64,000 nt of DNA, from positions 20,474 to 84,473 of the forward strand of contig JBAXRK010000008.1 in the NCBI GenBank assembly GCA_037131245.1. The letters run 5' to 3'. A program made the translations under genes and the position numbers. The notes under the pieces are model-generated. The model ran no database searches. It was not told the origin of the DNA and saw only the letters and a program-made list of their open reading frames with translations. Positions 9,866-31,654 of the stretch are shown piece by piece (the stretch's first letter is position 1; every line of letters begins with the position of its first letter). Source of the DNA: Candidatus Omnitrophota bacterium (GTDB lineage Bacteria > Omnitrophota > Gorgyraeia > Zapsychrales > Fredricksoniimonadaceae).

Positions 9866-9933
9866 GGGAGAAACTCCAAAAAATTAAGGATTCACGTACG
9901 TATAAATAAATATTATAAGCGGTAAAGGGGTGT

Positions 9934-9962
9934 ATTTTAAGTCCAGAGCTATCGAAAATCAA
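9934..9962 (-). promoter_or_regulatory. candidate sigma70-type promoter for gltBD
   Basis: Minus-sense TTGATT (9962-9957), 17-nt spacer, TAAAAT (9939-9934), about 70 nt upstream of the gltB ATG. A GGAG Shine-Dalgarno precedes the ATG. Confidence 0.35.
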
Positions 9963-9971
9963 CAGTTTTTT

Positions 9972-14163: not shown

Positions 14164-14852
14164 TTTTGTCTCATCACCTTCAGAAAGTTTTCGCACAACC
14201 TGTTGCCGTTACGATGGAATTCTACTTTCACGGCAGCATACCGCGCCAGCATGGCTTCGCGCTCGAGGCGCTTTCTCTCAGAAAAATCTGCCGACCAATC
14301 GCGGATGCTGATATCCGTTATCTCGGAATGGAACTGCAACCCATACGCCTTCGCCCCGTAGCGAAAAGCCTGGACGGGGCAGGCCTCTGACGAAGCCAGG
14401 AGCACCGCGCCATCGGGGGGGGCGCACATATCGCCGTGCCATTGATAAACCTCAAGCGGATCCGGCAAGCCGGCGAAGAGTGGATCCTTCTTTCCCTCCG
14501 CGGTGAGGTCAACCGTGAACCAGCCGATCTCTTTCCGCGGTGAGCGAACAACTTTCCCACCGGAGGCTTTGGCCAATAACTGGGCGCCCAGGCAGATCCC
14601 CAGGACCGGGACCCCTTCGGCCAGAACTTTTTTCAGGAACACATCTTCATCTTTTAAGAACGGATACTGATCTTCTTCGTACACATTCATCGGCCCGCCG
14701 AGCGGAACAACCGCGTCGATCCCCCGCGGATCGTCCGGCAAGGCATCGCCAGCGTGCAAATTCAGGACCTTAAGCTGAAAGCCTTTATCGATAAAAAAGC
14801 TGCCCAGCGTCTCGGGCCCTTCGATCTCGATATGCTTAATGAACAGAATCAT
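14160..14852 (-). CDS. class I glutamine amidotransferase-like protein
   Basis: GICLGAQLLA nucleophile elbow and a QFHSE histidine motif. 230 aa. Confidence 0.75.
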   Translation of the reverse strand: MILFIKHIEIEGPETLGSFFIDKGFQLKVLNLHAGDALPDDPRGIDAVVPLGGPMNVYEEDQYPFLKDEDVFLKKVLAEGVPVLGICLGAQLLAKASGGKVVRSPRKEIGWFTVDLTAEGKKDPLFAGLPDPLEVYQWHGDMCAPPDGAVLLASSEACPVQAFRYGAKAYGLQFHSEITDISIRDWSADFSERKRLEREAMLARYAAVKVEFHRNGNRLCENFLKVMRQK

Positions 14853-14886
14853 AGCATAATGCCTTTCTAGATAAAGAGAATATTGT

Positions 14887-15043
14887 CTTGGCCCTGTGCT
14901 TTTGGTGGAGGCATATCATCGTCTGCTCAGACAGCACGTCCATCCCTTTCTAATAGGGATTGAAGGATGGCCGTGAACTCGCATCCGACGATATGCCTCC
15001 ACCTTTAACGCAAAGGGCCCAAGCACTTTATGTACTTGAGCCC
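14887..15043 (-). other. candidate structured RNA element with two mutually exclusive helices
   Basis: A long imperfect rod, 14887-15023, whose core is GGTGGAGGCATATC / GATATGCCTCCACC with base CTTGG.CCCT / AGGG.CCAAG. A 12-bp hairpin at 15015-15043 shares the GGGCCCAAG segment with the rod base. That hairpin needs two G-U pairs that exist only in the minus-sense transcript. Confidence 0.3.
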
Positions 15044-15111
15044 TATGGTTTTCTTAACACATTGATCTTACGAGACCTCTGAGACTGCTCTTACACAGGC
15101 CTCTGAGACCT

Positions 15112-17208
15112 TTAATATAAAAACAGCATCTCAGCGTACGTCGGGAGCGGCCAGAGATCAGCCGGCACCAACGCTTCAAGATCGTCAGCCGCCGCGCGGG
15201 TCTGGATCATGGCCGCTTTCATCTTGTCGGTACAATGGCATTCAATGGACGCTTCCAGCGCCTTGATGCCCGCGGCAAGTTCATCCGCCAGCTTACTGAC
15301 CTGGTCTAAGACGTCCTTCGCGGCAACAGCCTTGGAACCGGCCTCATCGACCGCTTTCACCGTCGACGCCAGCACCGCCTGATACTCGACCACGGCCGGG
15401 AAGATCTGGGTGGCCGCGATGGTCCGGGCGCATTCAGCCTCGTAGGACAGGACGCTCTTGTAGTTATGCATGTAGATCTCATAACGGGACAGGAGCTCTT
15501 TTCTCGACAGAACGGAATACTTCTCGAAGAGCTTAACGGTCTTTTCATCTTCCAGGATCTTAAGCGCTTCAGGCGTGGTCTTAAAGTTCGGCAAGCCGCG
15601 TTTGGCCGCTTCTTTATGCCACTCTTCAGTATAATTATCACCGTTGAACAGCACGCGCTTATGCTTTTTGATGATCGCCTGCAGGACCGCCTGAAGCGAC
15701 TTGTTGAAGTTCTTCTTCTCCTTAACATCCGCTTCGAGCTGGGTGCACATCTCATCGATGGCCGCGGCCACGATGGTATTGAGCGCCACGTTCGCACCCG
15801 ACGGGCTCATGTTGGAGCCAAGCGCGCGGAACTCGAACTTGTTGCCGGTGAACGCGAACGGGGAGGTGCGATTACGATCGGTGGCATCTCTCGGAAGGGT
15901 CGGGATCACGTCCACGCCGATCTGGATCACGCCGCCGCTCTTGGCCGTCTTGGCCTCGCCGCTTTCAAGCTGCTCGATGATATCCGTCAGCTGGTCGCCC
16001 AGGAACACGGAGATGATCGCCGGAGGAGCTTCATTAGCGCCCAGGCGGTGGTCATTGCCGGGAGTCGCGACCGTCGCGCGCAGGAGCGCCGCGTTCTCGT
16101 CGACCGCCTTGATGATCGCGCACAGCGTGAACAGGAACTTCGCGTTCTCATGCGGATTGGAACCCGGATGCAACCAGTTCTTGCCGTCCGTACCGACGAC
16201 CGACCAGTTATTATGCTTACCGCTGCCGTTGACGCCGGCGAACGGCTTCTCATGGAGCAGGCAAACCAGGCCATGCTTATCGGCGATCTGCTTCATCACA
16301 TCCATGCACATCATGTTATGGTCGACAGCGAGGTTGAGGCGCTCGTAAATAGGCGCGATCTCGAACTGCGCGGGCGCCACTTCATTATGGCGGGTCTTGG
16401 AGGGCATGCCCAGCTTCCAGAGGGTCTGGTCGAGCTCTTCCATGAACGCCAGGATACGCGGGCGGATAGCGCCGAAATAATGATCTTCCATCTGCTGATG
16501 GCGGGCCGGCTTGCTCCCGAAGAGCGTACGGCCGGTCTGCACCAGGTCGAGGCGCTGTTCGTAGAACGACTTGTCGATCAGGAAATATTCCTGCTCGGGT
16601 CCGAGAGTGGCATACGCCTTGGTGACGGCCTTGACGCCGAAGAGCTTGCCAGCGCGATCCATCTGCTTGGCCAGTGCCGCGATCGAGCGGAGCAAAGGCG
16701 CCTTCTTGTCGAGCGCTTCACCATGATAACCGCAGAAAATAGTCGGAATACAAAGGGTCGCACCCTCCGCGCCTTCTTTAATGAAAGCGGGGCTGGTAGG
16801 ATCCCAGGCCGTATAACCACGCGCTTCGAACGTGGCGCGCAAACCACCCGAAGGGAACGAAGACGCATCCGGCTCACCCTGGATCAACTCTTTAGCGGAA
16901 AATTCCATCTTGACGCCGCCCTGGCCATCGGGAGAAATGAAGGAATCGTGCTTCTCGGCCGTGGTGCCGGTGAGCGGCTGGAACCAATGGCAGAAATGAG
17001 TAGCACCCTTGGACACAGCCCAATCCTTCATGGCACCAGCAACTTCCGTCGCAATGGCCGGATCCAGCGCGCCGCCATCATTCATCGTTTTCTTGATGGA
17101 TTCAAAAGCTTTCTTGGACAAGACCTTCTGCATAACATTAAGACCGAAAACATTCTCGCCATACATGGCTTCAACCGCGCTGACCACTTTCTTGCTCTTT
17201 GCTGCCAT
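15112..17208 (-). CDS. glnN: glutamine synthetase type III
   Basis: About 700 aa, GSIII-type length and N-terminus (AVEAMYGENVFGLNVMQKVLSKKAF), with a GS catalytic core (HEKPFAGVNGSGKHNNWS). I prefer the ATG at 17208, which is preceded by AGGAGG and a 5-nt spacer. Confidence 0.9.
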   Translation of the reverse strand: MAAKSKKVVSAVEAMYGENVFGLNVMQKVLSKKAFESIKKTMNDGGALDPAIATEVAGAMKDWAVSKGATHFCHWFQPLTGTTAEKHDSFISPDGQGGVKMEFSAKELIQGEPDASSFPSGGLRATFEARGYTAWDPTSPAFIKEGAEGATLCIPTIFCGYHGEALDKKAPLLRSIAALAKQMDRAGKLFGVKAVTKAYATLGPEQEYFLIDKSFYEQRLDLVQTGRTLFGSKPARHQQMEDHYFGAIRPRILAFMEELDQTLWKLGMPSKTRHNEVAPAQFEIAPIYERLNLAVDHNMMCMDVMKQIADKHGLVCLLHEKPFAGVNGSGKHNNWSVVGTDGKNWLHPGSNPHENAKFLFTLCAIIKAVDENAALLRATVATPGNDHRLGANEAPPAIISVFLGDQLTDIIEQLESGEAKTAKSGGVIQIGVDVIPTLPRDATDRNRTSPFAFTGNKFEFRALGSNMSPSGANVALNTIVAAAIDEMCTQLEADVKEKKNFNKSLQAVLQAIIKKHKRVLFNGDNYTEEWHKEAAKRGLPNFKTTPEALKILEDEKTVKLFEKYSVLSRKELLSRYEIYMHNYKSVLSYEAECARTIAATQIFPAVVEYQAVLASTVKAVDEAGSKAVAAKDVLDQVSKLADELAAGIKALEASIECHCTDKMKAAMIQTRAAADDLEALVPADLWPLPTYAEMLFLY

Positions 17209-17226
17209 AAAAACCTCCTGTTTGTT

Positions 17227-17272
17227 AAAAGAAAAAGCCCTCAACCGAAAAGATCATTTTCGAAAGAGGACT
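17227..17272 (-). terminator. intrinsic terminator inside the glnN 5' leader
   Basis: Minus-sense AGTCCTCTTTCGAAAA-TGATC-TTTTCGGTTGAGGGCT followed by TTTTTCTTTT. It lies between the promoter and the glnN Shine-Dalgarno. Confidence 0.55.
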
Positions 17273-17326
17273 TCAATGCCCTGCTTCAGTCATTGTGAAA
17301 GCCAAAAAGCTTTCGAATATTGAAAA

Positions 17327-17355
17327 AGTATATACGCTGAAAAAAAACTTGTCAA
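17327..17355 (-). promoter_or_regulatory. sigma70-type promoter for glnN
   Basis: Minus-sense TTGACA (17355-17350), 17-nt spacer, TATACT (17332-17327). Confidence 0.55.
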
Positions 17356-17386
17356 CTTAAAAAAACTGCCGGAAAAAACCTGAAAA

Positions 17387-18610
17387 TCAGGCCGCTTTCT
17401 GGAAATCCACCATCAGCAGGATCGACTCCGCGATGTCTTTCATCGACTTGCAGGAATCCATGCTCTTGCGGTGGATCATCTTGTACGCCGCTTCTTCCGA
17501 AAGGCCATTCATCTTCATCAAGGCTCCCTTGGCACGCTCCACCAGCTTGCGGGTCTCGAGCGCTTCCTTGGCCTTAAGGGCTTCTTCCATCCAACGGGTG
17601 TTCTCCACCGCCGCGGCCGCCTGGTTGGCCACTAGCTGCAGGACGCCGATCTCATCCGACGTGAACGTGTGCGGCTCTTTAGTGTAAACATTGATGACGC
17701 CGATCGCCTTTTCCTTGGCGATCATCGGCACGGCCACCATGGTGCTCAAACCTTCCTTCACCGCCAGGTCGCGGTAAAAATACCGCTTTTCCTTGCGGAC
17801 ATCCTCCACGATCAACGGGCGCAGGGTCTTGATGACTTCTCCCGTCAAACTGGCGTCAACTTTCAAATTCGGCTTCTTCTTGTAATCATCGCTCAGGCTT
17901 TGCGTGGCCTTAATGACCAGCTCGGTGCCCTTGGCATCAAGCAGCATGACGGAACAGATCTTGGAATTAAGCATCTCGGCGGTCACGATCACGATCAGGC
18001 TAAGGATCTCATCGAGATATTTTTCAGAGGTGATCGACTGGCTGACCTTCACCAAACTGTCGAACTGCAGCGCTTTCTGCTTGATCTCCCCGAACAAACG
18101 GGCATGTTCGACCACGCCACCCAACTGGCGGGCGGCCATATTCATCAGATTAACAACGCTGACAGGAAATTCGTATGGCTTCTTGTGCTGAAGATTGATA
18201 ACGCCGATGGCCTTTCCCTTATAAACGATAGGCAGAGCCAGAAAAGCCTCATAACGATCTTCAGGCAACACATCGAACGCTTTAAAACGCGGATCAGCGT
18301 AGGCCTTCGCCGGAATCGCCAGCGGCTTAACGTTCTTCGCTACCCAACCGGTCAAACCCTCACCGACCTTAAGCGTCACCTGCCCCAATTCCTTCTTATG
18401 CGGGGTTTTGGACGCGCACATCACCAGGTTCTTGTGGGAGGCATCAAAAAGATAAACAAAGGCCGAATCCGCGGGCGTGATGGCGAGCGCCACCTTGATG
18501 ATCTCACTAAGCACGCCATCGAGCTCAAGCTCGGAAGTTGTGATCTCAACGATCTGGCGTAAAATGGTCAGTTCATCTTTTGAAGAAAGCTGGGCTTTGA
18601 CTTTGGGCAT
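17387..18610 (-). CDS. GAF-GAF-ANTAR RNA-binding antiterminator-type regulator
   Basis: Two GAF-like halves (..VYLFD..LVMCAS..GEGLTGWVA.. and ..SVMLLD..LVIKAT..). The C-terminus is ANTAR-like (LETRKLVERAKGALMKMNGLSEEAAYKMIHRKSMDSCKSMKDIAESIL). Confidence 0.75.
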   Translation of the reverse strand: MPKVKAQLSSKDELTILRQIVEITTSELELDGVLSEIIKVALAITPADSAFVYLFDASHKNLVMCASKTPHKKELGQVTLKVGEGLTGWVAKNVKPLAIPAKAYADPRFKAFDVLPEDRYEAFLALPIVYKGKAIGVINLQHKKPYEFPVSVVNLMNMAARQLGGVVEHARLFGEIKQKALQFDSLVKVSQSITSEKYLDEILSLIVIVTAEMLNSKICSVMLLDAKGTELVIKATQSLSDDYKKKPNLKVDASLTGEVIKTLRPLIVEDVRKEKRYFYRDLAVKEGLSTMVAVPMIAKEKAIGVINVYTKEPHTFTSDEIGVLQLVANQAAAAVENTRWMEEALKAKEALETRKLVERAKGALMKMNGLSEEAAYKMIHRKSMDSCKSMKDIAESILLMVDFQKAA

Positions 18611-19215: not shown

Positions 19216-20922
19216 TTGAACGCTCTGTCAATGCGATATTCTGCCATGCTCGATAAAATTGAATCACTGATCAAGAAGTCTTCCACCGCGATCCTGCTAC
19301 TCACGCTCCTGGGCGTGATCGTTTACGCCAACTGCCTGCCCAACGAAATGTTCTGGGATGACGATGACTTCATCCTCAAGAACTTGTTCCTGACCGACTG
19401 GAAATACTGGCCGCATTTTTTCACTGATAACCTGATCGCCGGCAATCACCTGGTCTGCAATTACTGGCGGCCGCTGTTGCAGATCGTTTTCGCGATCGAA
19501 TGGCACCTGTGGGCCGACTGGGCACCGGGCTGGCACGCGGTCAGCGTCTTTTTTCACATCCTGGCCGGAGCCGCGCTGTTCAAATGCCTCGACCTGCTTT
19601 TTACCAACCGCGCGCTGGCGTTCTTGTGCGCGGCGATGTTCATTGTCCATCCGGCCCAGACCGAAGCGGTGGTATATCCCAACAGCCTGGGCGACGCACT
19701 CGCCGCGGGCCTGATGTTCTGGGGCACTTACGCCTATGCCCGCCATCACAAGACCGGCGCGCGCGGCTGGTGGTGGATCGCGCTTCTAATGTATCCCCTG
19801 GCCCTGATGTCCAAAGAGACCGGCATTCTTCTTCTGGGCTACCTGGCCCTGGCCGAATTCTTCGTCCTCCAACAAGAAGGCGCCTTCTTCATCAAATGCT
19901 GGCGCACGCTCAGGAACTTATGGCCCTTCATCATCACGGCTGCCGGATACTTGCTCCTGCGCGCGACGGTGCTTAATTTCGCCAACTCGTTCAATTTTTA
20001 TAAAGAGCCAACGGCGTTCACCTCTCATTTCGGGCTGAGGCTGACATCATTCTTTCAAACCCTCGCGGCTTACACCGGTTTACTTTTTATCCCCTATGAT
20101 CTGCGCGTTGAACGGGTCATTCAGCCGCCGGCCAAATTGTTCACACCCGACGAGCTCTTTGGCGCCGCTATTTTCCTGATACTGGTCTATCTGATCATCC
20201 GCTGCTGGACAAAGCGGCCACTCATCTCCTTCGGGATCCTGTGGTTTTTCGTAAGCATCCTGCCGACATCAAACCTGATCGTGGTCATCAATGCCATCCT
20301 GTACGAACACTTTCTTTATACCGCGCTGATCGGCGTTTTTTGGGCCCTATTCTGGACGGGGCTAACCTGGGCGCAAACAGCCGAGAGAAAGCGGTTCTTC
20401 TGGGGGATAGCGCTGACCGTGATCGCGCTCTTTGCCGGGCGCAGCCTATGGCGCACGTTCGACTGGCGCACCGCGATCGGGTTCTACGAAAAACTTATCG
20501 TGACCGCGCCGGACAGTTACCGCGTGATCAATAATCTGGGCATGGAATACGCCGAAAAAGGCCGCCTTGTCGAAGCCGAGGCGACGTATAAGAAAGCCGT
20601 CACGCTCGACCCCACGAACGCCGTGGCGTATCACAATTTAGGGAATTTGTGCCAGGCGTCAGGAAGAAGGAAGGACGCCATCGCCTATTTTGAACAAGCC
20701 ATCGCCCGGCAGAAGAATTTCATCTTTTCCTACAAGCCGCTGGCCAAGCTATACCTCGACAGCAACGATTACCCCAATGCCCGCCGCGTGCTGGAGCAAT
20801 TCTACGCCTACACGGACGAACGGGAGATGGTGCTCAAGACCCTCGTCGCCATTGCCCAAAGGCAAAGTGACAATGCCGCAGTCCAGCGTTACTCACAAAT
20901 TTTATCAAAGCTGCACCTCTAA
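19216..20922 (+). CDS. polytopic membrane protein with C-terminal TPR repeats (TMTC/O-mannosyltransferase-like GT-C candidate)
   Basis: N-terminal motif NEMFWDDDDFILKN followed by many helices. C-terminal TPR repeats (GMEYAEKGRLVEAEATYKKAVTLDPTNAVAYHNLGNLCQASGRRKDAIAYFEQAI). The start is uncertain: TTG at 19216, ATG at 19231 or ATG at 19246. Confidence 0.55.
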   Translation: MNALSMRYSAMLDKIESLIKKSSTAILLLTLLGVIVYANCLPNEMFWDDDDFILKNLFLTDWKYWPHFFTDNLIAGNHLVCNYWRPLLQIVFAIEWHLWADWAPGWHAVSVFFHILAGAALFKCLDLLFTNRALAFLCAAMFIVHPAQTEAVVYPNSLGDALAAGLMFWGTYAYARHHKTGARGWWWIALLMYPLALMSKETGILLLGYLALAEFFVLQQEGAFFIKCWRTLRNLWPFIITAAGYLLLRATVLNFANSFNFYKEPTAFTSHFGLRLTSFFQTLAAYTGLLFIPYDLRVERVIQPPAKLFTPDELFGAAIFLILVYLIIRCWTKRPLISFGILWFFVSILPTSNLIVVINAILYEHFLYTALIGVFWALFWTGLTWAQTAERKRFFWGIALTVIALFAGRSLWRTFDWRTAIGFYEKLIVTAPDSYRVINNLGMEYAEKGRLVEAEATYKKAVTLDPTNAVAYHNLGNLCQASGRRKDAIAYFEQAIARQKNFIFSYKPLAKLYLDSNDYPNARRVLEQFYAYTDEREMVLKTLVAIAQRQSDNAAVQRYSQILSKLHL

Positions 20923-20986
20923 TAGCGAATATCTCTTTTGCGGAATTTCCGAAATTATGCTATTCTTTGCATTAACAGGAGGCTTT

Positions 20987-21229
20987 ATGACCATTGCCAT
21001 GACAAACAAGAACCAGGTGACCATCCCTAAAAAACTCGTTACGCTGATGGGTCTTAAAGAGGGCGCTTTATTCAATATTGAAATAAAAGGGTCCCGGTTG
21101 GAACTTATTCCCCTGGAGGTCACCGAAAAGTTCTTTACCGATGAAGAATATGCCGGGCTGGAGCGTCTTTATCAGAAAGAAAAACATTCTGCTAAAAAGT
21201 TATCCCTAAAGAACATTGAGGCGCTCTAA
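20987..21229 (+). CDS. AbrB/MazE/SpoVT-family antitoxin-like DNA-binding protein
   Basis: 80 aa starting MTIAMTNKNQVTIPKKLVTLMGLKEGALFNIEIKGSRLELIPL (SpoVT-AbrB swapped-hairpin pattern). AGGAGG sits 4 nt upstream of the ATG at 20987. The ORF-track extension back to 20690 overlaps the preceding gene. Confidence 0.7.
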   Translation: MTIAMTNKNQVTIPKKLVTLMGLKEGALFNIEIKGSRLELIPLEVTEKFFTDEEYAGLERLYQKEKHSAKKLSLKNIEAL

Positions 21230-21477: not shown

Positions 21478-24400
21478 TCAGCCCGTTGCTCCTGCCATCG
21501 CGGGCGCCTGAACCCTTGGCCCCAGGAACGCCGGCACATCCGTGACTGGCGTGATGCTGCGGATGATCGGCACCAGGCCGTTAAAATCCCCGCGCTGGAG
21601 CATGGCCGGGTCAATATTGAACTTGATGCCCGGGCCGTTGGAATCGATGTTCAGATCGGCATTGCTCATGTCGAAGTCGATACCACCCTGCTGTAGGCGA
21701 TTACTAACAGGACTAGCCACTTGATTAACCACTTGTTCACTATTATCAATATGACCTGCTTTCATCGTTCCCTGCTCATCAAAAGTAATCGCTACATCCT
21801 CCAATACGATCCTTCCCGTAGCAGGCAACCCTAGTTCTTTTCTTGATTCAGGACTATTAAGATCCTGAGGCTTACCGGAAAGATTATTGATCCGGATGCT
21901 GCCAATTAAAACAGCGTCCTTCAAGATAACAGCATCCGATGCGTCGCCTTTCTTTAAAACAATCTGCAAAGCCTTAAGATCTTTAGCACTGCCATTCTTA
22001 CCCAATGCCACATCTTCTAACGTCGTCAAATTCTTATAGTATGGCGCATCATCAAATTCATCTTTTTTAGGAATCACAAACTCTAATAACGGTGGATGGA
22101 ACTTGGCACCATAAACATGCTTTAAGGTCCAATCATTCAGATCAAGGTCAAACGCATCTGTCATAAACTGAAACCAATAATCTCCTGCCGACTTGCCTGG
22201 AGTAAAGAACTCCATCCTGTCCTCAACCCCGATATTGACGATCTTAACCAATCGACCCGACTTTGTGTGTTTCTTTAAAATTTCTTTTGCTGCCGGTGTA
22301 TTTTCGAAATAATTCTGTAAATTCAGTAAGGCGGTTCCAAACGGCCCTTCCAACTGAAAGAAATCTTTACTTCCTTGCGGTTTCTTGGAATCGATCAAGT
22401 CCGGAGCAAAGATCTTGTACATATTCTCCCGTTTCTCCTCAAGCGTGGCCCCTTGGATAACATTCTGAAAAACGTCTCTTAGGATCTCCTCCAGCTTGGA
22501 CTTATATAACGCCGCAATATTCGTATTAAAACTTTGCGTACCTTCACCGCCAATCCCGCCCTTTCGGCCAGCATTCACAAAGGCTGAACGCTGATCGTTG
22601 ATCTTAGCTGAGGCCAACTCCAACATCTTGACATTGATCTTTCCCTCTGGCGTTATCTCAATGCCAAACTTACCGCCCTTGGTGTCAATATCCGTAGCTG
22701 TTGTTGAAAGCATGACAATAGGTATTTCTTCTTCAACCATCCATTGCATAATAGTGTCATTAACTAAGCTATTAACAGCATCTCCATTTTGAAACGTTAC
22801 AAACTCATTGCCTTCTGATTTTTTTGAAGAGTCAATCATCTCTCCCAAAAACGTTGTCGCCCATTCACCATGACTAACAGAGCTCAATCGCTCATAAGTT
22901 GGCTTTAATGTATCCACAGTCAATGAAGGATAGAACTGTGCCATCCTCATGTTAATATCAATGCCTTCATCCGCAAATATTTCACGGTACGTTCTTACCC
23001 GTGGGCGGTCATCTATAATATCCTGAAGGCATTCCTTTTCCAAAAATGCCTCATAAAACGGCTTCGATTCAACGTTCACCAAAGGTTCAAAAACAATACG
23101 ACCACCCCCCAAAAAACCCATCTTCTTACGATATAAAAGATTCAATGCCTTGATCTCGGCAATCGTCAAAAACCGGTCTTTACCTTTGATCTTCAACTTC
23201 ATTACTTTTTCTATCTCACCTGACGACACAAGCATACCTATGTCTGTGCCTTTAGCCCCAATGCTTAATACAATATTCCTGATCTTCTTGAATTGTTCAG
23301 CGGTATACTTCTTACCCGAAGAAGGCCGTTCAACAAACCATTTATCAGAAATTTTATCCTGAAGAGATTTGCCATCAACCGAAAAGCTAAATTCTGGCCT
23401 AACAAAACCATTCTCATCCAAATACCCATTCGAGTACAAAACCTCCCTTATGTCCTTATAGTCAAACCCCTCGCTTTCAAACCAGGGCTTTTTGATCTCC
23501 AAACTATGATTCCTAAGAACATACGTCTGACGCTCGATTGCTGAACCTAAGCCGGCGTCACCAGATGCGACAATGGCCGTATATTGATGTTTCCTGGTAT
23601 AATTGCTAACAATTCTTTTGATGTCCGAATATTCATTTCGCCCCAAAAGAGCTTCTTTCTCGGCAGGCTTCAATAACGCATCCAAAATATAATTGCTTTC
23701 TCCATCCTGTCTAGCTGAAGCAACCAGAGTTTTAATTAACTCGTCATCGCCAATTTGCTCTTTATTTTGTGCTCTTCGAAGAGCAGCTTCCAAAAATTTA
23801 TCTTTGCCATTCCGATTCAAAGAAATTTTTAGCCTCCGAACTTTCTCCCAATTGGCTTTATCTTTAATCTTGTCAAGAAAAGCTCTAAAATGACCCATCC
23901 AGGCAACCACGCCCCAACCACTAACCGGTCCATATTTACCTAGAATTCCATCCTCTCCTTTACCAGACTTTAAAGCTTCTTCCGCAAAGGTTATGGCTTT
24001 GGCTACCTGTTCCGGCGTTTCAAACAGTTGCGAAGCATTAGCCGCCGCCTGCGCGGCGCTGACATTGCCAAGGTCGACGCGCGCGCCAACAAGGCGATCC
24101 TGAGACACCACCGGAACCGCACTCGCCGGCATGCGCTCGGCATTGTTCACATCCTTCGCTGAATCCCCTAGCACACCACCCGAGAAATACTTCCGCGGGA
24201 TGACCTCATTGCTCTGCGCGTCGAGGTCTTCCTTAATATAGTTGTAAACGCCCTTCTTGAAGGCCTCCACATAACGCTGATAGACCTGCTCTTTTTCGGT
24301 CTTATCCGCCAGCGCGTTCCCGGCCACCTTGTTCTTGTCGGCGAACGACGCATTAAGAATGCTGTCCTTGACCTTCACCTTATACCAGGCGGCCAGAAGC

Positions 24401-25218
24401 AGCGAATCGAACACCTGACGCAGCTGGGCAAAATTCTTGCCTTCATTGACCTCTTTGGTGATCGCCGGGAGCACCACCTCGCGCAGCACGCGGGAGGAAA
24501 TATCATTAAGCGTTTTAGACGCTTCATCCGTGATCTCGGGCGCGTCCGACTTATTATTAGCCACCGCCAGGTAATCCTGCTCGGTCAGCACTTTGAGCGT
24601 ATGCTTGACGATATAAACGCCGTTACCGGTCTCGTACAGCGCGATCTTATCCGGCATGATCCATACTTTATTGAACGACTCCATCGGCACATCCGACGTG
24701 CCCAGCTTGGCCTGCGCCTCGGCATACACCTTGGCCCAGAATTCCTTCCCCAGATCTGTCTCGGGATACACCATGGTCGCGGTGAGCTGCTTGAGCACAT
24801 AATCCTGTGCCAGCATGTCGCGGCCCATTTCGGTGCTGCCCAGGGCATCCGGAATAATGCGGTTCTTTTCATAGGGCGAAAGGTTCACCCAGGTCTCTTT
24901 TTCGGGAACGGTCAGCGCGGTAAGAAAATACTTAATGAGGCGATCGCTTTCATCGGAAAGCGCCTGGCCTTCCAAGCCGCTCTCACCTTTATCGACTATA
25001 AAATCGAACGCGAAAGGGTTCGCCAGGTCCACCTTGACGCCTTTAAGGGCGGCCGGGGTGAACGGCGCGCTTGCCTGAACCATGGTGCCGGGCACGGGCA
25101 AAGCGGCCAGCGCCTGCGCGAGCGCGGGCGTGGGCATCACGGAATTGACGAAGAAAAGCATCGCCAACGCTGCCGTGAACTGCCTTACAATGAACGATTT
25201 TTTGTCGAAATGAAGCAT
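21478..25218 (-). CDS. large secreted protein P1: shared N-module, UDP-sugar pyrophosphorylase (UDPGP)-like cargo, shared C-terminal GGID tail
   Basis: Signal peptide (..FFVNSVMPTPALAQA). The N-module, about 25140-24170, aligns with P2 and P3. The cargo shows a UDPGP-like motif order (IVASGDAGLGS; LSIGAKGTD; SHGEW; FQNGDAVNSLVND; DTKGGKFG; SFNTNIAAL; FFQLEGPFG). The tail is QQGGIDFD.. at 21694-21478. The start at 25218 has a GGGGA Shine-Dalgarno; the ORF track allows 25251. Confidence 0.6.
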   Translation of the reverse strand: MLHFDKKSFIVRQFTAALAMLFFVNSVMPTPALAQALAALPVPGTMVQASAPFTPAALKGVKVDLANPFAFDFIVDKGESGLEGQALSDESDRLIKYFLTALTVPEKETWVNLSPYEKNRIIPDALGSTEMGRDMLAQDYVLKQLTATMVYPETDLGKEFWAKVYAEAQAKLGTSDVPMESFNKVWIMPDKIALYETGNGVYIVKHTLKVLTEQDYLAVANNKSDAPEITDEASKTLNDISSRVLREVVLPAITKEVNEGKNFAQLRQVFDSLLLAAWYKVKVKDSILNASFADKNKVAGNALADKTEKEQVYQRYVEAFKKGVYNYIKEDLDAQSNEVIPRKYFSGGVLGDSAKDVNNAERMPASAVPVVSQDRLVGARVDLGNVSAAQAAANASQLFETPEQVAKAITFAEEALKSGKGEDGILGKYGPVSGWGVVAWMGHFRAFLDKIKDKANWEKVRRLKISLNRNGKDKFLEAALRRAQNKEQIGDDELIKTLVASARQDGESNYILDALLKPAEKEALLGRNEYSDIKRIVSNYTRKHQYTAIVASGDAGLGSAIERQTYVLRNHSLEIKKPWFESEGFDYKDIREVLYSNGYLDENGFVRPEFSFSVDGKSLQDKISDKWFVERPSSGKKYTAEQFKKIRNIVLSIGAKGTDIGMLVSSGEIEKVMKLKIKGKDRFLTIAEIKALNLLYRKKMGFLGGGRIVFEPLVNVESKPFYEAFLEKECLQDIIDDRPRVRTYREIFADEGIDINMRMAQFYPSLTVDTLKPTYERLSSVSHGEWATTFLGEMIDSSKKSEGNEFVTFQNGDAVNSLVNDTIMQWMVEEEIPIVMLSTTATDIDTKGGKFGIEITPEGKINVKMLELASAKINDQRSAFVNAGRKGGIGGEGTQSFNTNIAALYKSKLEEILRDVFQNVIQGATLEEKRENMYKIFAPDLIDSKKPQGSKDFFQLEGPFGTALLNLQNYFENTPAAKEILKKHTKSGRLVKIVNIGVEDRMEFFTPGKSAGDYWFQFMTDAFDLDLNDWTLKHVYGAKFHPPLLEFVIPKKDEFDDAPYYKNLTTLEDVALGKNGSAKDLKALQIVLKKGDASDAVILKDAVLIGSIRINNLSGKPQDLNSPESRKELGLPATGRIVLEDVAITFDEQGTMKAGHIDNSEQVVNQVASPVSNRLQQGGIDFDMSNADLNIDSNGPGIKFNIDPAMLQRGDFNGLVPIIRSITPVTDVPAFLGPRVQAPAMAGATG

Positions 25219-25341
25219 AAACATCCCCTTTTTGAATGTTATAAATATCACCCAGTCATCAAATATCGTTGTCCGACCTCCACCATGACTACAGACACGA
25301 ACCCCTTGCTATACAAAGGATAAACTATATAAAGGCACTTT

Positions 25342-28300
25342 TCAAGGCAACGGGAAAATTTTCTCCAAACCCGCTACCGGTGTTATGCCCAGGAAAACAG
25401 GTGTAAAACCCTTAAATTCGCTGCTGCCGATGGCGCTGCGCAGGGCTTCGTCATCGAATTTGATGGCCGAACTTCCGGCCTGAGCGACAAGATTAATACT
25501 GCTGATGTCGATACCACCGACCTCTTGGCTATAATCAACAATAGCACGGGCGAAGACCGCCGCTTGTTCCGGCAGGCCCTTAAGCACATCCTCACGGGTC
25601 ATTTTCATGTTCTCGACATTTTTCCGCAAAATCGCAACCAATGCGTCTTTCTCTTTGCCATTAAGGGAATTGAACAGCCCAAGCGCCTCGCCCCATTTGG
25701 CCTCCGGGATAATGCCATAACCTTCCTTAACGACCCAGTCGCCTTTCTGGCCATTGACAATGATCCGGAAATACTCCCCGACAATATCCTGCACCGCCGT
25801 ATCATTAGGCGTATACCCGGTCGTAAAGCTGATCCCCTGGATCTGGCCGCTGGCCATTTCGCTCGCAAAAACGCTTTCAAAATTACCTTTCGTCCTGAGC
25901 TGCTGAAGGGGCTTTTGAATGTAAAGAAGCTTTAGCGGCTCGGTCCTGTTACCGCCGAGCAAGCCTCTCTTCTTAAGCTCTTCTTTCGCCAAAGAGAAAT
26001 TCTGCACCGTATACGCGGCTTTTTTCTCCAGGATCATCACATCATCGCTTTGAAGGTCCGGCACCAGTTTCTGCCAATCTGGATTCTTCTCGGCCATCTG
26101 AATAAGGATCGAACGGATCATTTCGGCTTCACTCGCCATCGTGACATTGAACCCGTTAGCCAACGCCGTTTTCTGAATATCCAGCGTCAGCCGGCCTGTG
26201 CCGCCCGAGATCAAAATATGCTTTCCGATGCCGCGCGCTTTAAGCTCAAGGACCTTCCGGTAAACGTTAAGATCGTCATTACCGGGGATCATCAGGACAT
26301 CAATATTCTGGCCCGGCAGCTGGTCTTCAGAAACGTCGTTGTGCAGAAGAACTGAAAACTGTTGGCTCAAGCTAGCATCATTCAGCGACATGGAACTATC
26401 GCTTTTCGCTGTGTCGATCGTTTTGATAGCCTCCAAGGTTTTAGCCTTAAGCTCAGGCTTGGCGGCATCGGCCATGATCGGCCCCAACAGATCGGGCGTA
26501 TACGTTTTAACCCTGGACTGTTCGCTAAGCGCCTCCCAGGTGGTTTCTTCAATGTCCCAAACTTCACCCAAGCCGGACTTGATCGCTTTCATTTCCTTGA
26601 TGAAAACATCTTTTAAAAGATCCAGGACCTTAACCAGCTCTTTCTTGCGCTCTCCACCGGCCTTGTAAATAGCCATGATCTCGGCCGGAACATCAGAAGC
26701 TGCCGCGGGCGTTTTATAAAAACGAACGATCATCGCCTTAAGGTCAGCATCTAATTTATTATCAGCCTTCAATGCGGCAATCGCTTTAGCCCGGGCCATG
26801 GTCAGTTTAGCCAGCTCTTTCTCGATCTTCTTCCACTCCGAAGCTGATCCTTGATAAACAGAAAGGGACCGAACTTCTTTATTGTTTGAACCCGGCTCGT
26901 CGTAAACATCAAAAGACACAAACGACAGTTTCCCGAACAACTTCGATTTCTGCTGTAAATTCAGCTCCTGATCCAATTCCTCGGTAACACCGGTAATATG
27001 CTTCATTCCCGTCACCAGATGGCCACCATAGATCGACCGGAAGAATCCGAATGTATTCCAGGGGGCGCGCACCTGAACAAGGACCTTTTTCCCGGGCGTC
27101 AGAACAAAAGCATTGGCTGTCTGATGAAAATACCCTAATTGTTCAGCGATATTGCGGTCAATGGTCCCATTAACCTTGATCACGCTGATAATGCCTTGCC
27201 CCTCTTCACGGGTTCTGGCTTTCTTCAACATTTCGATCGCCCGTGCGTTCATCTTTAGAATGTCGACCGACTCGCCCTTTAACTTCATCTCACCAGCACG
27301 GATCTTTTCCATGACAACATCAATAGCATTCACACGCTCCGCTGAAATAATAACCCCGCCATTGACCTGGGTTTCGATCGACTCGATCCCGTCCCGCACG
27401 ATCTTCAGGGTGGACTCAAGATTCTTTCTAGCCAGGACTTTCTCCTCCGCCGAAGCCTTCGCGTCATTGATAATGGCCGAATAGGCCCCGATCGACGCCT
27501 TTAATTCTTCTGAAAGCATCGACGCGTCGGCTTTCCTGCTACCCGTTACAGCCGCTACTTTCGCGCGGATCATTTCATTCGCGTTCTCTTTTAACGCTTC
27601 CACCGCCTTAACACCGCGCGGATCTCCGATCTGAAGCAAGGCATCGATCATCGCGGAAAGAACGAATGGGTCTTCCTCGGTCTCCAGCGCTTTTAAAACA
27701 ATCCCAAGCGCCTGCTCTCCACCGATATTCCCCAATGCCACGACCGCCGCGGCCACTGTCTGGAAATCAGGATCATGTAATCCCTTATTTGACTTGAGCA
27801 CATCAATGACACGAGGATCTGTCTTATCTTTGCGTCCCGCGTTGATCATCCCCAATCCCCAGACCGCGGTACGTTTGGCCCAATAGGTCGGCGCGTTCGA
27901 AACAGCATCCAGAAGGGCGGCTTCAGCGTCTACTCCGCCGCGCATGGCCAGGACCGTGATCGCCCAACGGCTAACGGCCGCATTCTGATTCATGATATGC
28001 GGCGCAACAAGAGCATTCACATCATCGCGGTCCGTTATGGTCAAATAGCGCGTCCTCCATAGATCATAGTTTCCCCTCTCACCGCTCGTATTGGCCACGA
28101 TCTCGTCAACGAACTCATTAACAAAATCATGCGGTTCCTCAGCCAGCTTGGCCGCGATCATCGTTTCACCGGCGAATTCACCATCGACAGCGGCCAGCTC
28201 TCCTTCAAAACGCGCTCCAGCCATCTGCATGGCCCACACCGCAGCGCCATGAACATCTTCGGGCTCACCCTTACGCTCCGCCAAAGACCTGAGCGCCTCA

Positions 28301-31300
28301 ATAGGCGCCAGCTTCGGCCAGGCCCCCAAACCCATCGCTGAATGATGACGAACATCGTCACTGTCACTCCCAAGCCCGTCGACCAATGCCGGAACGACCC
28401 GCGCGTCATGGATATCACGAAGCGCCATCAGGACATTATTCTTCACATCCGCATCCTGATCATCCACCATAGAAAGCAAGGTGGATACCAGCCCTTTGTC
28501 TTTCATGACAATAGCCGCAATAGCGGCCCGGTTGCGGATCACCTTATCTTCGCTTTTTAAAAGCTGCGCAACGCGCGCCACCAGCGGCTCAACCCGCAAA
28601 GGATCCGTCTGGCGGATCTCACGGAACGCAAGGCCCATCTGTTCCCTCATTTCAAGCGGAAGGCCCGACACCAGCACCGTGAACATGCCTTCCAAAACCG
28701 GATCATTTCCGGTCATCGAAGCGTCCGATGACTTGATCTTATTCCAAAGGTCCGTGTTTTTAGGAGTTAACAGCAGGTCGAGAGAATCAGGTGCGAAATA
28801 AAAATCCTTGGTCTCTTTAACCCCATTAAATTCAACCGGCAACTGCAAATACCGATTAGTTTTATCCTTATACGGCGATTCCTTATGATCAGGATTAACC
28901 AGCGCTTTATCCAGCTGATCATCGTTAACCGTCACAACCCCGACAACTTCCCCGCCGCCGCTGCGGAACGCCCGAAGGATATTAAGAACATCTTCCCCCA
29001 AGCCAACCGCGCTAAGCGCGGCCTTTGTTTCCTCCTCTTCAAAAGATTTAGCCAGCTGATAGAATTTCACCGTTGCAAAACCCTTCATCCAGGGCTTACC
29101 GGCAACCTTCTTCATCTTGTCCACCGGAACTTCAACAAGGATCCCGCCAGTGACCAAACGATCGAAAGCACCGGGGATATTATCAAAGAACCTGGCCTCA
29201 ATAAGCCCGCTCTGAACACGGAAGAACGCGTTCTTGTACTCCTCCCTGGTAACAGACTCCGGCTTAACACCGACAGCCGCTTCGATCACGCTCATTCTGG
29301 CTTTCACCTTCTCAAACTCTGCCGCGGTCAACCGATACTTGAACCAGGAACGGCGTTCCACATTATTGTCCCCGTCAGCACGGCGATCATAATCTTCGGT
29401 ATCAACAAAGACAGGGTCATGGTCAAGGCTGGGTAACCCCAATTCCTGCTCCAATTCCTCTTTAGCCGCCGACAAGTGATCTTCACCAACGCCCACATGG
29501 CCACCGAATACCGCCAAATGATCGTCATAATTGTCCTTATTGCGGATCTGCAAGACTTCTTCTTCCTTCCCATCAGCGTTAACCACAACCACCATGGTGT
29601 TCGCCGTTTCATGAGGAAGGCCGAAAGCTTCCGCGATATTACGGTCGATACGCCCGACCACTTCCGCGCTCCGCCCGACACTGTTGAGAATATGAACTTC
29701 TTCCCCTTTGAACGTTTTAATGGCCTTACCGGAAACGCTGATCGCTCCGGTCGTTGGATCGATCTGGCTCAGGCGCTGAGCCACCAAAGCATCGATTTTC
29801 TTCAAAAATTCATCATATCTGAGCTGAATATCAAGAGCGTCCCCTCCAGGGATCCCGTAATCTTCAAGGGCGTTGGAATAATTAAACGTTCCTTTTCGCA
29901 TCTCGGCCAATATACGCAATTCTGTGTCACTAAAATTACGCCAAATCTCGATGTCTTTCGTCACCTGCTCGAGCTGCGCTTTAACCCTTTCTAAATTAAA
30001 TGGCCGCTTGGAAACAAAACCCGTCGTTTCGTTGATATACCCGGGCGTGCCTTCTTGATCCCTCAATAACTTAAGATCGCTTTCCGAAAATTTTGGAGCC
30101 TGGGCCTTATCTTCCTTCTTGATAACGTTAGCATCGGAAATAAACGTCGTGCTTTCATCCCTTTGATAATCAAGAGACGCAACATAGGACGATTTACCAT
30201 CGTTGGTGGATTCCACCTTCACGGTCCACGGCACACCCAGCGCTTCAAATGCGGCCGCCTGCTTCACGCATTTATCGATCAATGCTTCTCTTGTAGTACC
30301 GGTATATTCTAAACCTTTGGCGCCTTCCCATACCGAGCCCGCAGGAGCCCCCTGCTCTATTGGACCAGGAAGAAACTGTTCAACAACGGACCTAACGCGG
30401 GCCTCATCAGCTTTATCCGGCGCCGCCGCGAAATCCATCGTCACCACCCGGCCGGTGCTCGCCACTTCCGTCGCTGCCGCGTTATCAAGCCTCGCGGGCA
30501 TGATATCCAGCACGCCGCCTGAGAAATATTTCTTAGGGGTCACGGTGCCCGTCGCGTCCGCCTCTTCCCGGATCACATTCACCACGCCTTTTTTGAACGC
30601 CTCAATATAACGCTGATAGATCTGCTCTTTCACCGTCTTGTCTGAAAGGTCCACGCCGGCCACCATCTTGTGGTCCACGTAAGCCTGCGCCATCAGCGTA
30701 TCCTTGATAGCCTCGCGATACCACTTGGCCAGAATGCCCGCGTAATAGATCTGGCGGATGGTGGCGAAATTCGCGCCTTCATTGACTTCTTTCTCGAGCG
30801 CCGGAACGATCACCTGGCGCAACACTTCCTTGGCCAATTCGATCGTCGGGGAGGTTTCCTGAGATGTTGCCGTGCCATTATTCTGCATGGCCTGGTAATC
30901 GGCATCCAGCATCACCTTGAACGTAGCTTTCGTTACATACACCGCATTGCCCTGCTGATAAACACGGGCCTCGGCCGGCATGATCCATACCTTATTAAAT
31001 GTATCCACCGGAATATCCGTGGAACCAAATTTCGCCTGGGCTTGGGCATAAACCCTGGTCCAAAATTCCTGACCGATACCCTGCTGCGGGTCCATCGATG
31101 ACGCTGTCAGCTGTTTGAGCGTATAATCCTGCGCCAACATATCGCGGCCAAGATCGGTGTTCCCGAGTTCATCCGTGATCATGCGCTGATGTTCATAAGG
31201 GGAAAGGTTGACCCAAAGATCTTTTTCCGGAAGGGTGACCGCCGCCAGAAAATAGCGCATCATCCGCTCGCCTTCCTTCTTTAAGTGGTCGGCAGAATCT

Positions 31301-31512
31301 TTATCGTTCCCGGAATCAACAATGAAACGGAATTTAAGGGGCTCATTGGGAGAGATCATGAGCCCTTTAATGAGCACCGGCTCGAACCGGGCTGATGTGG
31401 CCACCATGGCCCCCGGCTGAGGTAAAAGCGAAAGGGCAAAGCCTTGCGCATGAACGCTGGCCGGGCTAAAACCGATCAAAACGCACAGAACAATACATAA
31501 TGCTTTTTTCAT
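25342..31512 (-). CDS. large secreted protein P2: shared N-module, two Nudix/IDI-like modules, HEAT-like repeats, DUF218/YdcF-like domain, shared C-terminal GGID tail
   Basis: Signal peptide MKKALCIVLCVLIGFSPASVHAQG from the ATG at 31512. Nudix-like box FGGHVGVGEDHLSAAKEELEQELGL (about 29480-29510). A degenerate copy, YGGHLVTGMKHITGVTEELDQELNL, lies at about 27000-27030. HEAT-like repeats sit at about 27580-28620. DVLMIPGNDD..ILISGGTGRLT is at about 26200-26300. The tail VGGIDISS.. is at 25530-25342. Confidence 0.6.
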   Translation of the reverse strand: MKKALCIVLCVLIGFSPASVHAQGFALSLLPQPGAMVATSARFEPVLIKGLMISPNEPLKFRFIVDSGNDKDSADHLKKEGERMMRYFLAAVTLPEKDLWVNLSPYEHQRMITDELGNTDLGRDMLAQDYTLKQLTASSMDPQQGIGQEFWTRVYAQAQAKFGSTDIPVDTFNKVWIMPAEARVYQQGNAVYVTKATFKVMLDADYQAMQNNGTATSQETSPTIELAKEVLRQVIVPALEKEVNEGANFATIRQIYYAGILAKWYREAIKDTLMAQAYVDHKMVAGVDLSDKTVKEQIYQRYIEAFKKGVVNVIREEADATGTVTPKKYFSGGVLDIMPARLDNAAATEVASTGRVVTMDFAAAPDKADEARVRSVVEQFLPGPIEQGAPAGSVWEGAKGLEYTGTTREALIDKCVKQAAAFEALGVPWTVKVESTNDGKSSYVASLDYQRDESTTFISDANVIKKEDKAQAPKFSESDLKLLRDQEGTPGYINETTGFVSKRPFNLERVKAQLEQVTKDIEIWRNFSDTELRILAEMRKGTFNYSNALEDYGIPGGDALDIQLRYDEFLKKIDALVAQRLSQIDPTTGAISVSGKAIKTFKGEEVHILNSVGRSAEVVGRIDRNIAEAFGLPHETANTMVVVVNADGKEEEVLQIRNKDNYDDHLAVFGGHVGVGEDHLSAAKEELEQELGLPSLDHDPVFVDTEDYDRRADGDNNVERRSWFKYRLTAAEFEKVKARMSVIEAAVGVKPESVTREEYKNAFFRVQSGLIEARFFDNIPGAFDRLVTGGILVEVPVDKMKKVAGKPWMKGFATVKFYQLAKSFEEEETKAALSAVGLGEDVLNILRAFRSGGGEVVGVVTVNDDQLDKALVNPDHKESPYKDKTNRYLQLPVEFNGVKETKDFYFAPDSLDLLLTPKNTDLWNKIKSSDASMTGNDPVLEGMFTVLVSGLPLEMREQMGLAFREIRQTDPLRVEPLVARVAQLLKSEDKVIRNRAAIAAIVMKDKGLVSTLLSMVDDQDADVKNNVLMALRDIHDARVVPALVDGLGSDSDDVRHHSAMGLGAWPKLAPIEALRSLAERKGEPEDVHGAAVWAMQMAGARFEGELAAVDGEFAGETMIAAKLAEEPHDFVNEFVDEIVANTSGERGNYDLWRTRYLTITDRDDVNALVAPHIMNQNAAVSRWAITVLAMRGGVDAEAALLDAVSNAPTYWAKRTAVWGLGMINAGRKDKTDPRVIDVLKSNKGLHDPDFQTVAAAVVALGNIGGEQALGIVLKALETEEDPFVLSAMIDALLQIGDPRGVKAVEALKENANEMIRAKVAAVTGSRKADASMLSEELKASIGAYSAIINDAKASAEEKVLARKNLESTLKIVRDGIESIETQVNGGVIISAERVNAIDVVMEKIRAGEMKLKGESVDILKMNARAIEMLKKARTREEGQGIISVIKVNGTIDRNIAEQLGYFHQTANAFVLTPGKKVLVQVRAPWNTFGFFRSIYGGHLVTGMKHITGVTEELDQELNLQQKSKLFGKLSFVSFDVYDEPGSNNKEVRSLSVYQGSASEWKKIEKELAKLTMARAKAIAALKADNKLDADLKAMIVRFYKTPAAASDVPAEIMAIYKAGGERKKELVKVLDLLKDVFIKEMKAIKSGLGEVWDIEETTWEALSEQSRVKTYTPDLLGPIMADAAKPELKAKTLEAIKTIDTAKSDSSMSLNDASLSQQFSVLLHNDVSEDQLPGQNIDVLMIPGNDDLNVYRKVLELKARGIGKHILISGGTGRLTLDIQKTALANGFNVTMASEAEMIRSILIQMAEKNPDWQKLVPDLQSDDVMILEKKAAYTVQNFSLAKEELKKRGLLGGNRTEPLKLLYIQKPLQQLRTKGNFESVFASEMASGQIQGISFTTGYTPNDTAVQDIVGEYFRIIVNGQKGDWVVKEGYGIIPEAKWGEALGLFNSLNGKEKDALVAILRKNVENMKMTREDVLKGLPEQAAVFARAIVDYSQEVGGIDISSINLVAQAGSSAIKFDDEALRSAIGSSEFKGFTPVFLGITPVAGLEKIFPLP

Positions 31513-31576
31513 ACTTGAGTCCCTTTTCTGTTTTAATTGCGGAAAAATCCGGTCCAACCCACCAAACAAAGGCAAC

Positions 31577-31605
31577 AATATAGTAAAGAAATGTAGATTT
31601 AGCAA
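31577..31605 (-). promoter_or_regulatory. candidate sigma70-type promoter for P2
   Basis: Minus-sense TTGCTA, 17-nt spacer, TATATT, in the AT-rich gap between P3 and P2. Confidence 0.3.
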
Positions 31606-31654
31606 CAAAAAGTAATACGTTGATTATTAAAGTATATACGATGTTTTCCAGATT

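Follow-up and report, generated by a model that had tools for sequence, protein, structure and literature searches.

The 64,000-nucleotide stretch of Candidatus Omnitrophota DNA considered here (GenBank assembly GCA_037131245.1, contig JBAXRK010000008.1, positions 20,474 to 84,473 of the forward strand; hereafter the window, numbered from its first letter) carries three adjacent minus-strand genes that span 21.5-36.5 kb and encode the proteins P1 (1246 amino acids, aa), P2 (2056 aa) and P3 (1621 aa). All three proteins end in a homologous module of about 65 residues, named here the GGID tail, which is a real protein-level module conserved across Omnitrophota. This tail and a second constant module, an N-terminal domain of about 330 aa (the head), occur together in virtually all intact genes of related Omnitrophota loci, and the two are inherited jointly whereas the cargo that they enclose is exchanged. 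The explanation that we tentatively favour, as a serious possibility short of a probable one, is that head and tail together make up one two-part constant carrier, in which the tail would be the second half and not a free-standing tag.

The GGID tail as a protein-level module

The tail homology comprises the GGID motif, amphipathic strands, a DPAM helix (the tail consensus includes D-P-A-M-L), a G-x-x-PVI-x-I-x-P segment and FLG. In the alignment of the P1-P3 tails the residues G-G-I-D, G, P, I and P-V are invariant, at a protein identity of 27-37%. A hidden Markov model (HMM) of the tail, made from 48 homologues and free of window sequences, was scanned against all 1106 six-frame segments of the window and matched the three C-termini only (E = 2.5e-21 for P1, 4.7e-7 for P3 and 1.1e-5 for P2; next best E = 3.5). 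Similar tails on the three proteins had been reported in an initial annotation of the window made from the letters alone, and both their positions and their sequences were given correctly there, as was a stretch shared at the DNA level: the 11-mer TCGATACCACC is present in exactly three copies, one in each tail, where 0.03 would be expected.

When a family tail profile was searched, the matches in P1, P2 and P3 ended 8, 4 and 1 residues before the stop codon, and the C-terminal ends of the proteins read …MAGATG, …KIFPLP and …ALGGQP. An exhaustive search with the tail profile gave 6226 cluster representatives, 2489 of them at E <= 1e-10, showing that the tail is not limited to the three window proteins. 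In nearly every case the match lay at the extreme C-terminus and was followed by 0-50 residues, usually by no more than 14.

The tail was then compared with established C-terminal signals and domains. No hydrophobic or transmembrane helix was found in the last 80 aa of P1-P3, where the maximum Kyte-Doolittle mean over 19 residues was 0.76-1.21; the corresponding mean for the signal peptides of the same proteins was 1.6-2.2. The isolated tails matched nothing in Pfam and NCBIfam even at E <= 10, the tail profile matched no PDB sequence, and none of the LPXTG, PEP-CTERM, Por_Secre_tail or other -CTERM models of Pfam and NCBIfam recognised the tails. These results agree with the initial annotation, which had described a tail with neither an LPXTG nor a PEP-CTERM motif, with no terminal hydrophobic helix and too short for an autotransporter barrel (about 65 aa as compared with about 250 aa or more; no autotransporter match was obtained in Pfam). 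Two outcomes had been named there as speaking against a dedicated signal, namely confinement of the tail to these three proteins, combined with the lack of a phylogenetic co-occurrence partner and with dispensability for localisation, and a match to a known folding or oligomerisation domain. Neither was encountered, given that the tail recurs far outside the window and that no domain known for folding, oligomerisation or sorting was matched in Pfam, NCBIfam or PDB.

The layout of the three genes is given below. The models of P2 and P3 match an independent gene call on the source contig (ENA assembly ERZ4200879, NODE_69, 111,979 bp), in which P2 is likewise 2056 aa long.

21478-25251, minus strand: open reading frame (ORF) of P1; probable ATG at 25218, giving 1246 aa
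21478-21708, minus strand: P1 GGID tail module; profile match at 21505-21708, then 8 residues and the stop codon; GGID at 21676-21687
21730-21747, minus strand: DNSEQV, the P1 junction motif ahead of the tail, a local variant of D-x-[AS]-M
21709-24174, minus strand: P1 cargo, 822 aa; weakly UDP-glucose pyrophosphorylase-like (Pfam UDPGP E = 5.7e-4, below the family cut-off)
24175-25218, minus strand: P1 signal peptide (about 25117-25218, A-L-A/Q) and conserved N-terminal domain ending PRKYFSGG (HMM score 513, E = 1.9e-155)
25342-31608, minus strand: ORF of P2; real start MKKAL at 31512, giving 2056 aa
25342-25539, minus strand: P2 GGID tail module; GGID at 25507-25518, with DYSQEV ahead of it at 25519-25536
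25540-30513, minus strand: P2 cargo, 1658 aa; two NUDIX-like modules with HEAT repeats between them, followed by a C-terminal module (Pfam HEAT_2 7.5e-26, NUDIX 2.9e-7), separated by D-[AS]-S-M at 28714-28725, 27517-27528 and 26389-26400
30514-31512, minus strand: P2 signal peptide (MKKALCIVLCVLIGFSPASVHA/Q) and conserved N-terminal domain (HMM E = 4.8e-138)
31655-36520, minus strand: ORF of P3, 1621 aa
31655-31870, minus strand: P3 GGID tail module; GGID at 31838-31849, with DHSEQV ahead of it at 31856-31873
31871-35512, minus strand: P3 cargo, 1214 aa; weak kinase-like matches (Pfam APH E = 6e-4, below the family cut-off); a D-H-A-M junction motif at 35399-35410, about 40 residues past the N-terminal domain
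35513-36520, minus strand: P3 signal peptide (…VGPVCA/Q) and conserved N-terminal domain (HMM E = 2.3e-131)

Coupling of head and tail and exchange of cargo

P1, P2 and P3 share the N-terminal domain at 49-50% identity, with the motifs …WVNLSPYE…FNKVWIMP…EVNEGKNFA…PRKYFSGG, and each begins with a Sec-type signal peptide consisting of a hydrophobic N-terminus and an A-x-A/Q-like site. Given that they have about 330 aa of N-terminal domain in common, the three are paralogues and not unrelated cargo proteins. The initial description of a short conserved C-terminus on signal-peptide proteins with diverse cargo therefore holds as far as it goes, but it did not mention this relationship. The conclusion drawn from it, that such a tail typically marks second-step export or attachment, is unsupported as it was put, since sorting tags sit on otherwise unrelated proteins and the GGID tail is confined to one family with a shared N-terminal domain.

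The window contains exactly three N-terminal domains and three tails, in the same three genes. The coupling was examined in a larger sample of 80 Omnitrophota loci, which were fetched via the N-terminal domain and translated into six-frame ORFs. Among the closed ORFs, 67 had both N-terminal domain and tail (800-2819 aa), 8 had the N-terminal domain only and 6 the tail only. Seven of the N-only ORFs were followed on the same strand by a tail-bearing ORF after a frameshift, a run of N or an in-frame stop; six of these following tails are the tail-only ORFs and the seventh scored below the threshold. The N-only ORF of L080 has a divergent tail, below the threshold, and an N-only ORF of 404 aa in L012 was the sole leftover among the 14 apparent exceptions.

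The reverse implication, from tail to head, was checked independently of the choice of loci by N-terminal domain, using short tail-only proteins from the tail search that were located on long contigs. The tail-only ORF of L083 is a frameshifted gene with the N-terminal domain directly upstream. Those of L084 and L086 lie in error-ridden long-read assemblies, with an N-terminal domain fragment upstream in L086. In L085 (7992-8396) an orphan tail ORF of 132 aa, lacking a signal peptide and any N-terminal domain within 8 kb, is probably a remnant. The only candidate for a tail on an unrelated protein was P0301 (377 aa), in which a different signal peptide is followed by family-type cargo and the tail, and which is possibly an assembly chimera. 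Since the tail-only ORFs checked were split genes, products of error-ridden assemblies or a probable remnant, and P0301 is a possible chimera, the tail is not a tag spread over unrelated exported proteins. In pairwise comparisons tail identity was correlated with N-terminal domain identity (r = 0.73-0.75), and the corresponding value between the two halves of the N-terminal domain was r = 0.79.

Between these constant ends the cargo varies extensively. No BLASTP match was found among the cargos of P1, P2 and P3, their Pfam content differs, and the mean column identity of 58 aligned cargo regions was 7%. In 47 pairs of family members the N-terminal domains are about 80% or more identical and the tails more than 70% identical, and the listed pairs differ widely in cargo length. 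When the cargos of nine pairs with near-identical heads and tails were compared by BLASTP, 8/9 gave no match and the remaining pair (P0088/P0191) gave a weak one, at 31%. The Pfam domains in the cargo of 58 homologues are mostly of cytoplasmic type and include phosphoglycerate kinase (PGK, 1e-107), phosphoenolpyruvate carboxykinase (PEPCK), Glu/Leu dehydrogenase, alanine dehydrogenase, PPDK_N, RmlD/epimerase, uridine kinase, HATPase_c, HEAT repeats, GNAT, PP2C, methyltransferases, radical SAM and response regulator; in one split family gene the cargo, judged by eye, looks like phosphoglucose isomerase (PGI).

Often a cargo module has the look of an entire captured gene. The PGK module of L015 (at about residue 765 of the cargo) begins at an apparent native Met, the distance of which to the R-x-D-x-N-V-P motif we take to be the same as in E. 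coli PGK. A twin-arginine signal stands at the start of one cargo, and signals that are lipobox-like or resemble a second Sec signal stand at the start of several others; cargo resembling whole genes or carrying inner signal sequences was noted in L015, L014, L044, L070, L004, L045, L049, L066 and L080. Signal sequences inside fusion proteins raise questions of topology. The P1 cargo (21709-24174) has a GC content of 42.9%, as compared with 55.1% in its own head, 59.7% in its own tail and 56-57% in the flanking chromosome, and the break coincides exactly with the cargo borders, head, tail and flanks being typical of the genome. This suggests that the P1 cargo is a recently captured foreign insert. 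An origin from a mobile element was considered for it, and tblastn against phage and plasmid collections returned no match; in PDB, phmmer gave no match for the cargos of P1 and P3 or for the last module of P2. The two NUDIX-like modules of P2 (about 29230-29500 and about 26700-27000) are similar to each other, and their Nudix boxes appeared degenerate by eye (REUxEE is EELEQE in the first module and G-x5-E is lost in the second), so that they may be binding modules rather than active hydrolases.

The borders of the cargo are marked by a short motif, D-x-A-M, which occurred 85 times in the cargo regions of 67 homologues as compared with 8.5 expected, and which clusters 3-47 aa past the head and 9-36 aa ahead of GGID. 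In all three window proteins a variant, D-x-S-[EQ]-[QE]-V, is located 2-14 residues before GGID. The motif was also considered as an internal ribosome-binding site with start codon. This was rejected: Shine-Dalgarno-like cores were found in 14/85 motif contexts, less often than at real gene starts in the window (12/25), and the D and A codons vary synonymously, both of which indicate that the motif is conserved at the peptide level. D-x-[AS]-M may be a processing site or a linker-helix cap.

The relation between head and tail was modelled in P0008, a natural cargo-less member of 438 aa that consists of the head, a 15-aa linker containing D-S-A-A, and the tail. P0008 is found on five contigs in tandem with a family member of 1110 aa (in L081, P0008 at 2704-4020 and its neighbour at 4093-7425). 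The AlphaFold2 model, based on a paired alignment of 50 sequences, had a predicted template modelling score (pTM) of 0.79 and a mean predicted local distance difference test score (pLDDT) of 77.5. The modelled head is a mixture of long helices and long beta-hairpins. The modelled tail (pLDDT 58-87) has short strands at G-I-D and at residues 378-382 directly after the last head hairpin; its DPxx segment is helical, and its PVI segment is extended and modelled with confidence. The P1 tail modelled alone (51-sequence alignment) had a pTM of 0.28, with no strands and two short helices. On these models the tail is not predicted to fold autonomously, a result that is not final given the shallow alignment. 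Foldseek, run with the P0008 model on PDB and BFVD, returned no match below E = 0.2, with TM values of 0.13 or less, the several matches to MakA/MakB (E about 0.4-1) being not meaningful, and a head-plus-tail sequence profile matched nothing in PDB.

A candidate two-part carrier and the alternatives

Each family member is laid out as a Sec signal peptide, the N-terminal domain of about 330 aa, one or more exchangeable cargo modules and the tail of about 65 aa. If head and tail form one carrier, the amphipathic strands of the tail and its hydrophobic G-x-x-PVI-x-I-x-P segment would dock onto the N-terminal domain after Sec export, either in cis, so that the cargo forms a closed, displayed loop, or in trans on a second copy. 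The cell would then recognise this assembled unit in deciding the fate of the cargo, be it retention, surface display, further export or processing, and the junction motifs would be candidate processing sites at which cargo is released at its native N-terminus. The head-plus-tail unit might have a sorting role. A more far-reaching version, which we consider doubtful, would be a phylum-wide carrier system in which whole genes, including those for housekeeping cytoplasmic enzymes and even for proteins with Sec, Tat or lipoprotein signals of their own, are captured in frame between the exported head and the GGID tail; the clasp of head and tail would be recognised, D-x-A-M would release cargo with a native N-terminus, and the system would be the way in which these ultra-small, host-dependent or predatory bacteria export, display or deliver an exchangeable arsenal of enzymes.

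Several observations weigh against the two-part carrier. That a tail implies a head rests mainly on the smaller, unbiased check, which includes the ambiguous case of L084, the orphan of L085 and the possible chimera P0301, and strict co-occurrence also fits with separate, sequential roles of head and tail. The docking is suggested by differences in confidence and secondary structure between two AlphaFold2 models, made for different sequences from shallow alignments (50-51 rows); a pTM of 0.79 for P0008 could be reached with a loosely placed tail, and the PVI segment keeps a pLDDT of about 80-85 even in the isolated tail. The final location of the proteins and their cleavage are likewise predictions.

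An alternative that deserves attention, although we think it unlikely, is that the tail works by itself as a C-terminal domain for secretion or sorting. After Sec export it would be recognised in trans by a phylum-specific machinery of the outer membrane, encoded at an unlinked site, and might be cleaved at the junction motif just upstream; the N-terminal domain would have a separate role. Its position at the extreme C-terminus of Sec-signal proteins with diverse cargo and several copies per genome is what such a domain would show, the junction motif 9-36 aa upstream could be the processing site, and no known family accounts for the tail. Sortase and exosortase signals (LPXTG, PEP-CTERM, GlyGly-CTERM) are likewise short conserved extreme C-termini on exported proteins, several per genome, but they are tripartite, with a motif, a transmembrane helix and a basic cluster, whereas the GGID tail is longer, has no transmembrane helix and matches none of their models. 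Autotransporters (type V) differ in having a C-terminal barrel of about 250 aa or more, and no Pfam match to them was found.

The closest parallel in logic is the C-terminal domain (CTD) of the type IX secretion system (T9SS) of Bacteroidota (Por_Secre_tail, TIGR04183; PMC11285876), also a conserved C-terminal module, of about 65-100 aa, on multi-copy Sec-signal proteins with diverse cargo and with a processing site just upstream, for which the GGID family offers only a candidate. The T9SS CTD is an autonomous Ig-like beta-sandwich (structure reviewed in PMC11285876) that is carried by unrelated proteins, recognised by dedicated Por proteins and matched by curated models. The GGID tail, in contrast, matches no T9SS model, has no predicted fold in isolation (AlphaFold2 pTM of 0.28, strands absent), accompanies one N-terminal domain only and is found in Omnitrophota. 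An autonomous signal is further disfavoured by the failure to confirm any intact tail protein without the family N-terminal domain, unlike what is seen for established sorting tags, and by the absence of matches to Por_Secre_tail or any other -CTERM model. Nor was a machinery gene conserved beside the family genes. When the 305 ORFs located no more than three genes away from a family member were clustered by homology across the 80 loci, no recurrent transporter, sortase or protease was found, and the dedicated gene of this kind that the initial annotation had suggested looking for did not appear among these neighbours; the largest cluster, with 5 members in 4 loci, was a GT2 glycosyltransferase. 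No T9SS machinery gene (PorK/L/M/N, SprA, PorU/V) was found among the ORFs scanned in the window at about 0.7-47 kb, part of a 112-kb contig, or among the neighbours in the 80 loci.

The tail could also be an intermolecular dock that inserts into the N-terminal domain of another member, so that paralogues would be chained head to tail or arranged in a surface lattice displaying many cargo enzymes, a reading that we hold to be improbable. In the donor-strand complementation of chaperone-usher pili, a short terminal segment without a fold of its own becomes a strand inside another domain. The GGID tail would resemble this as a foldless terminal segment that is ordered next to another domain in the models, where the docking is a prediction, but there is no sequence or fold relationship between the two. 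Prediction of a monomer is blind to the choice between cis and trans, several paralogues are present per genome and often in tandem, and the cargo includes consecutive metabolic enzymes (PGK, PGI, PEPCK, PPDK_N) that would gain from co-assembly. Direct evidence for oligomerisation is missing, however; the co-variation of tail and head within one polypeptide suits docking in cis at least as well, and the cargo-less member with its 15-aa linker was modelled as a compact monomer.

Exchange of cargo between conserved ends, together with one exact 11-mer in all three tails, might instead be taken to mean that the ends are DNA-level recombination handles for cassette exchange between paralogues, with a functionless tail peptide. 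This is barely credible, being essentially excluded by the low DNA and protein identity among the window paralogues: their tails are 27-37% identical in protein and the only reported shared DNA is the 11 bases encoding GGID. Across thousands of sequences the conservation is of protein type (G-G-I-D, G, P-V-I, P and an amphipathic periodicity), and the synonymous D and A codons of the neighbouring D-x-A-M indicate selection at the peptide level there.

The two-part carrier itself can be compared with MARTX toxins, in which conserved ends bracket a variable array of effectors that is swapped between strains and has inter-module processing sites. Constant ends, swapped modules and inter-module sites (candidate sites here) are common to both. 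MARTX toxins are secreted by the type I route without a Sec signal peptide and have constant regions of glycine-rich repeats and a cysteine protease domain (CPD), whereas P1-P3 have Sec-type signal peptides and no RTX, CPD or related matches in Pfam or NCBIfam, and the cargo of the GGID family includes whole enzymes of housekeeping type. A comparison within the phylum is offered by the giant Omnitrophota proteins ("archaeovorins"), which are described in two preprints as being 10-147 kaa long and as mostly having a signal peptide or transmembrane helices (10.1101/2023.11.21.568195, 10.64898/2026.06.07.730766). As far as these descriptions go, their domains overlap with the cargo domains found here (HEAT_2, NUDIX, HATPase_c, PPDK_N, radical SAM, response regulator, GNAT acetyltransferase), but the members of the GGID family are 800-2800 aa long, and a keyword search of both texts gave no mention of a head of about 330 aa or of a GGID tail.

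Extent and genomic surroundings of the family

Among 8000 candidates, 901 scored homologues of the N-terminal domain were found, the named ones being nearly all from Candidatus Omnitrophota/Omnitrophica metagenome-assembled genomes, and the domain is encoded at at least 589 loci in GTDB species-representative genomes. Of the best 80 loci, one lies on a contig that is probably misbinned, and the others all come from Omnitrophota or from PVC bins with automatic labels. Other labels were seen on L052 (Ca. Elulimicrobium sp.), on P0012 (Heimdallarchaeota) and on many "uncultured Planctomycetales" bins, and these are most likely misbinned or automatically mislabelled contigs. The family is very large and appears to be specific to Omnitrophota. 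Several copies per genome are present, often in tandem, as in the window (three), in L049 (three) and in the pair of P0008 and its 1110-aa neighbour.

Neither head nor tail is described by any model in Pfam, NCBIfam, PADLOC or PHROGs. General literature searches and keyword searches of the giant-protein preprints gave no description of either module, and a keyword search of the Omnitrophota survey returned no passages. We regard the head-cargo-tail family as undescribed and genuinely new, with an appreciable chance that the whole system is new.

Omnitrophota are widespread globally, uncultured and mostly ultra-small, and a life of dependence on other cells or of predation on them is predicted (PMC10066038). 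With its loci in species-representative genomes and its thousands of metagenomic clusters, the head-tail family is among the most expanded of the phylum, and its two constant modules were unmatched in searches of Pfam, NCBIfam, PHROGs, PADLOC, PDB and BFVD. Whole cytoplasmic-type enzymes fused into exported proteins are hard to square with ordinary periplasmic biology. If head and tail do form a carrier, they would provide a concrete handle on secretion or effector delivery in Omnitrophota, and they might also find use in the export or display of proteins, as a modular scaffold of natural origin. In annotation, two new domain models, one for the head and one for the tail, are supported by the result and would label thousands of current "hypothetical proteins".

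The surroundings of the three genes are ordinary chromosome, with glutamate synthase, GS-III, NAD synthase and Lnt on one side and a ROK kinase, polyphosphate kinase, Ppx and GH57 on the other side of the array. The ROK-family sugar kinase (36676-37998) is located directly upstream of the array and was found beside family genes in three other loci (including L075, 16836-17762), a weak association that may be due to chance. Beyond it lies a polyphosphate cluster (38043-44669) with two metallophosphoesterase/HD proteins, a CHAD protein, PPK and Ppx-GppA. The nitrogen-assimilation cluster (3868-18610) comprises the large and small subunits of GOGAT, GS-III, NAD synthase, GATase and a GAF-ANTAR regulator. 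On the plus strand, shortly downstream of the stop codon of P1, a TPR ORF (19216-20922) overlaps an ORF of 179 aa that is MazE/AbrB-like (20690-21229).

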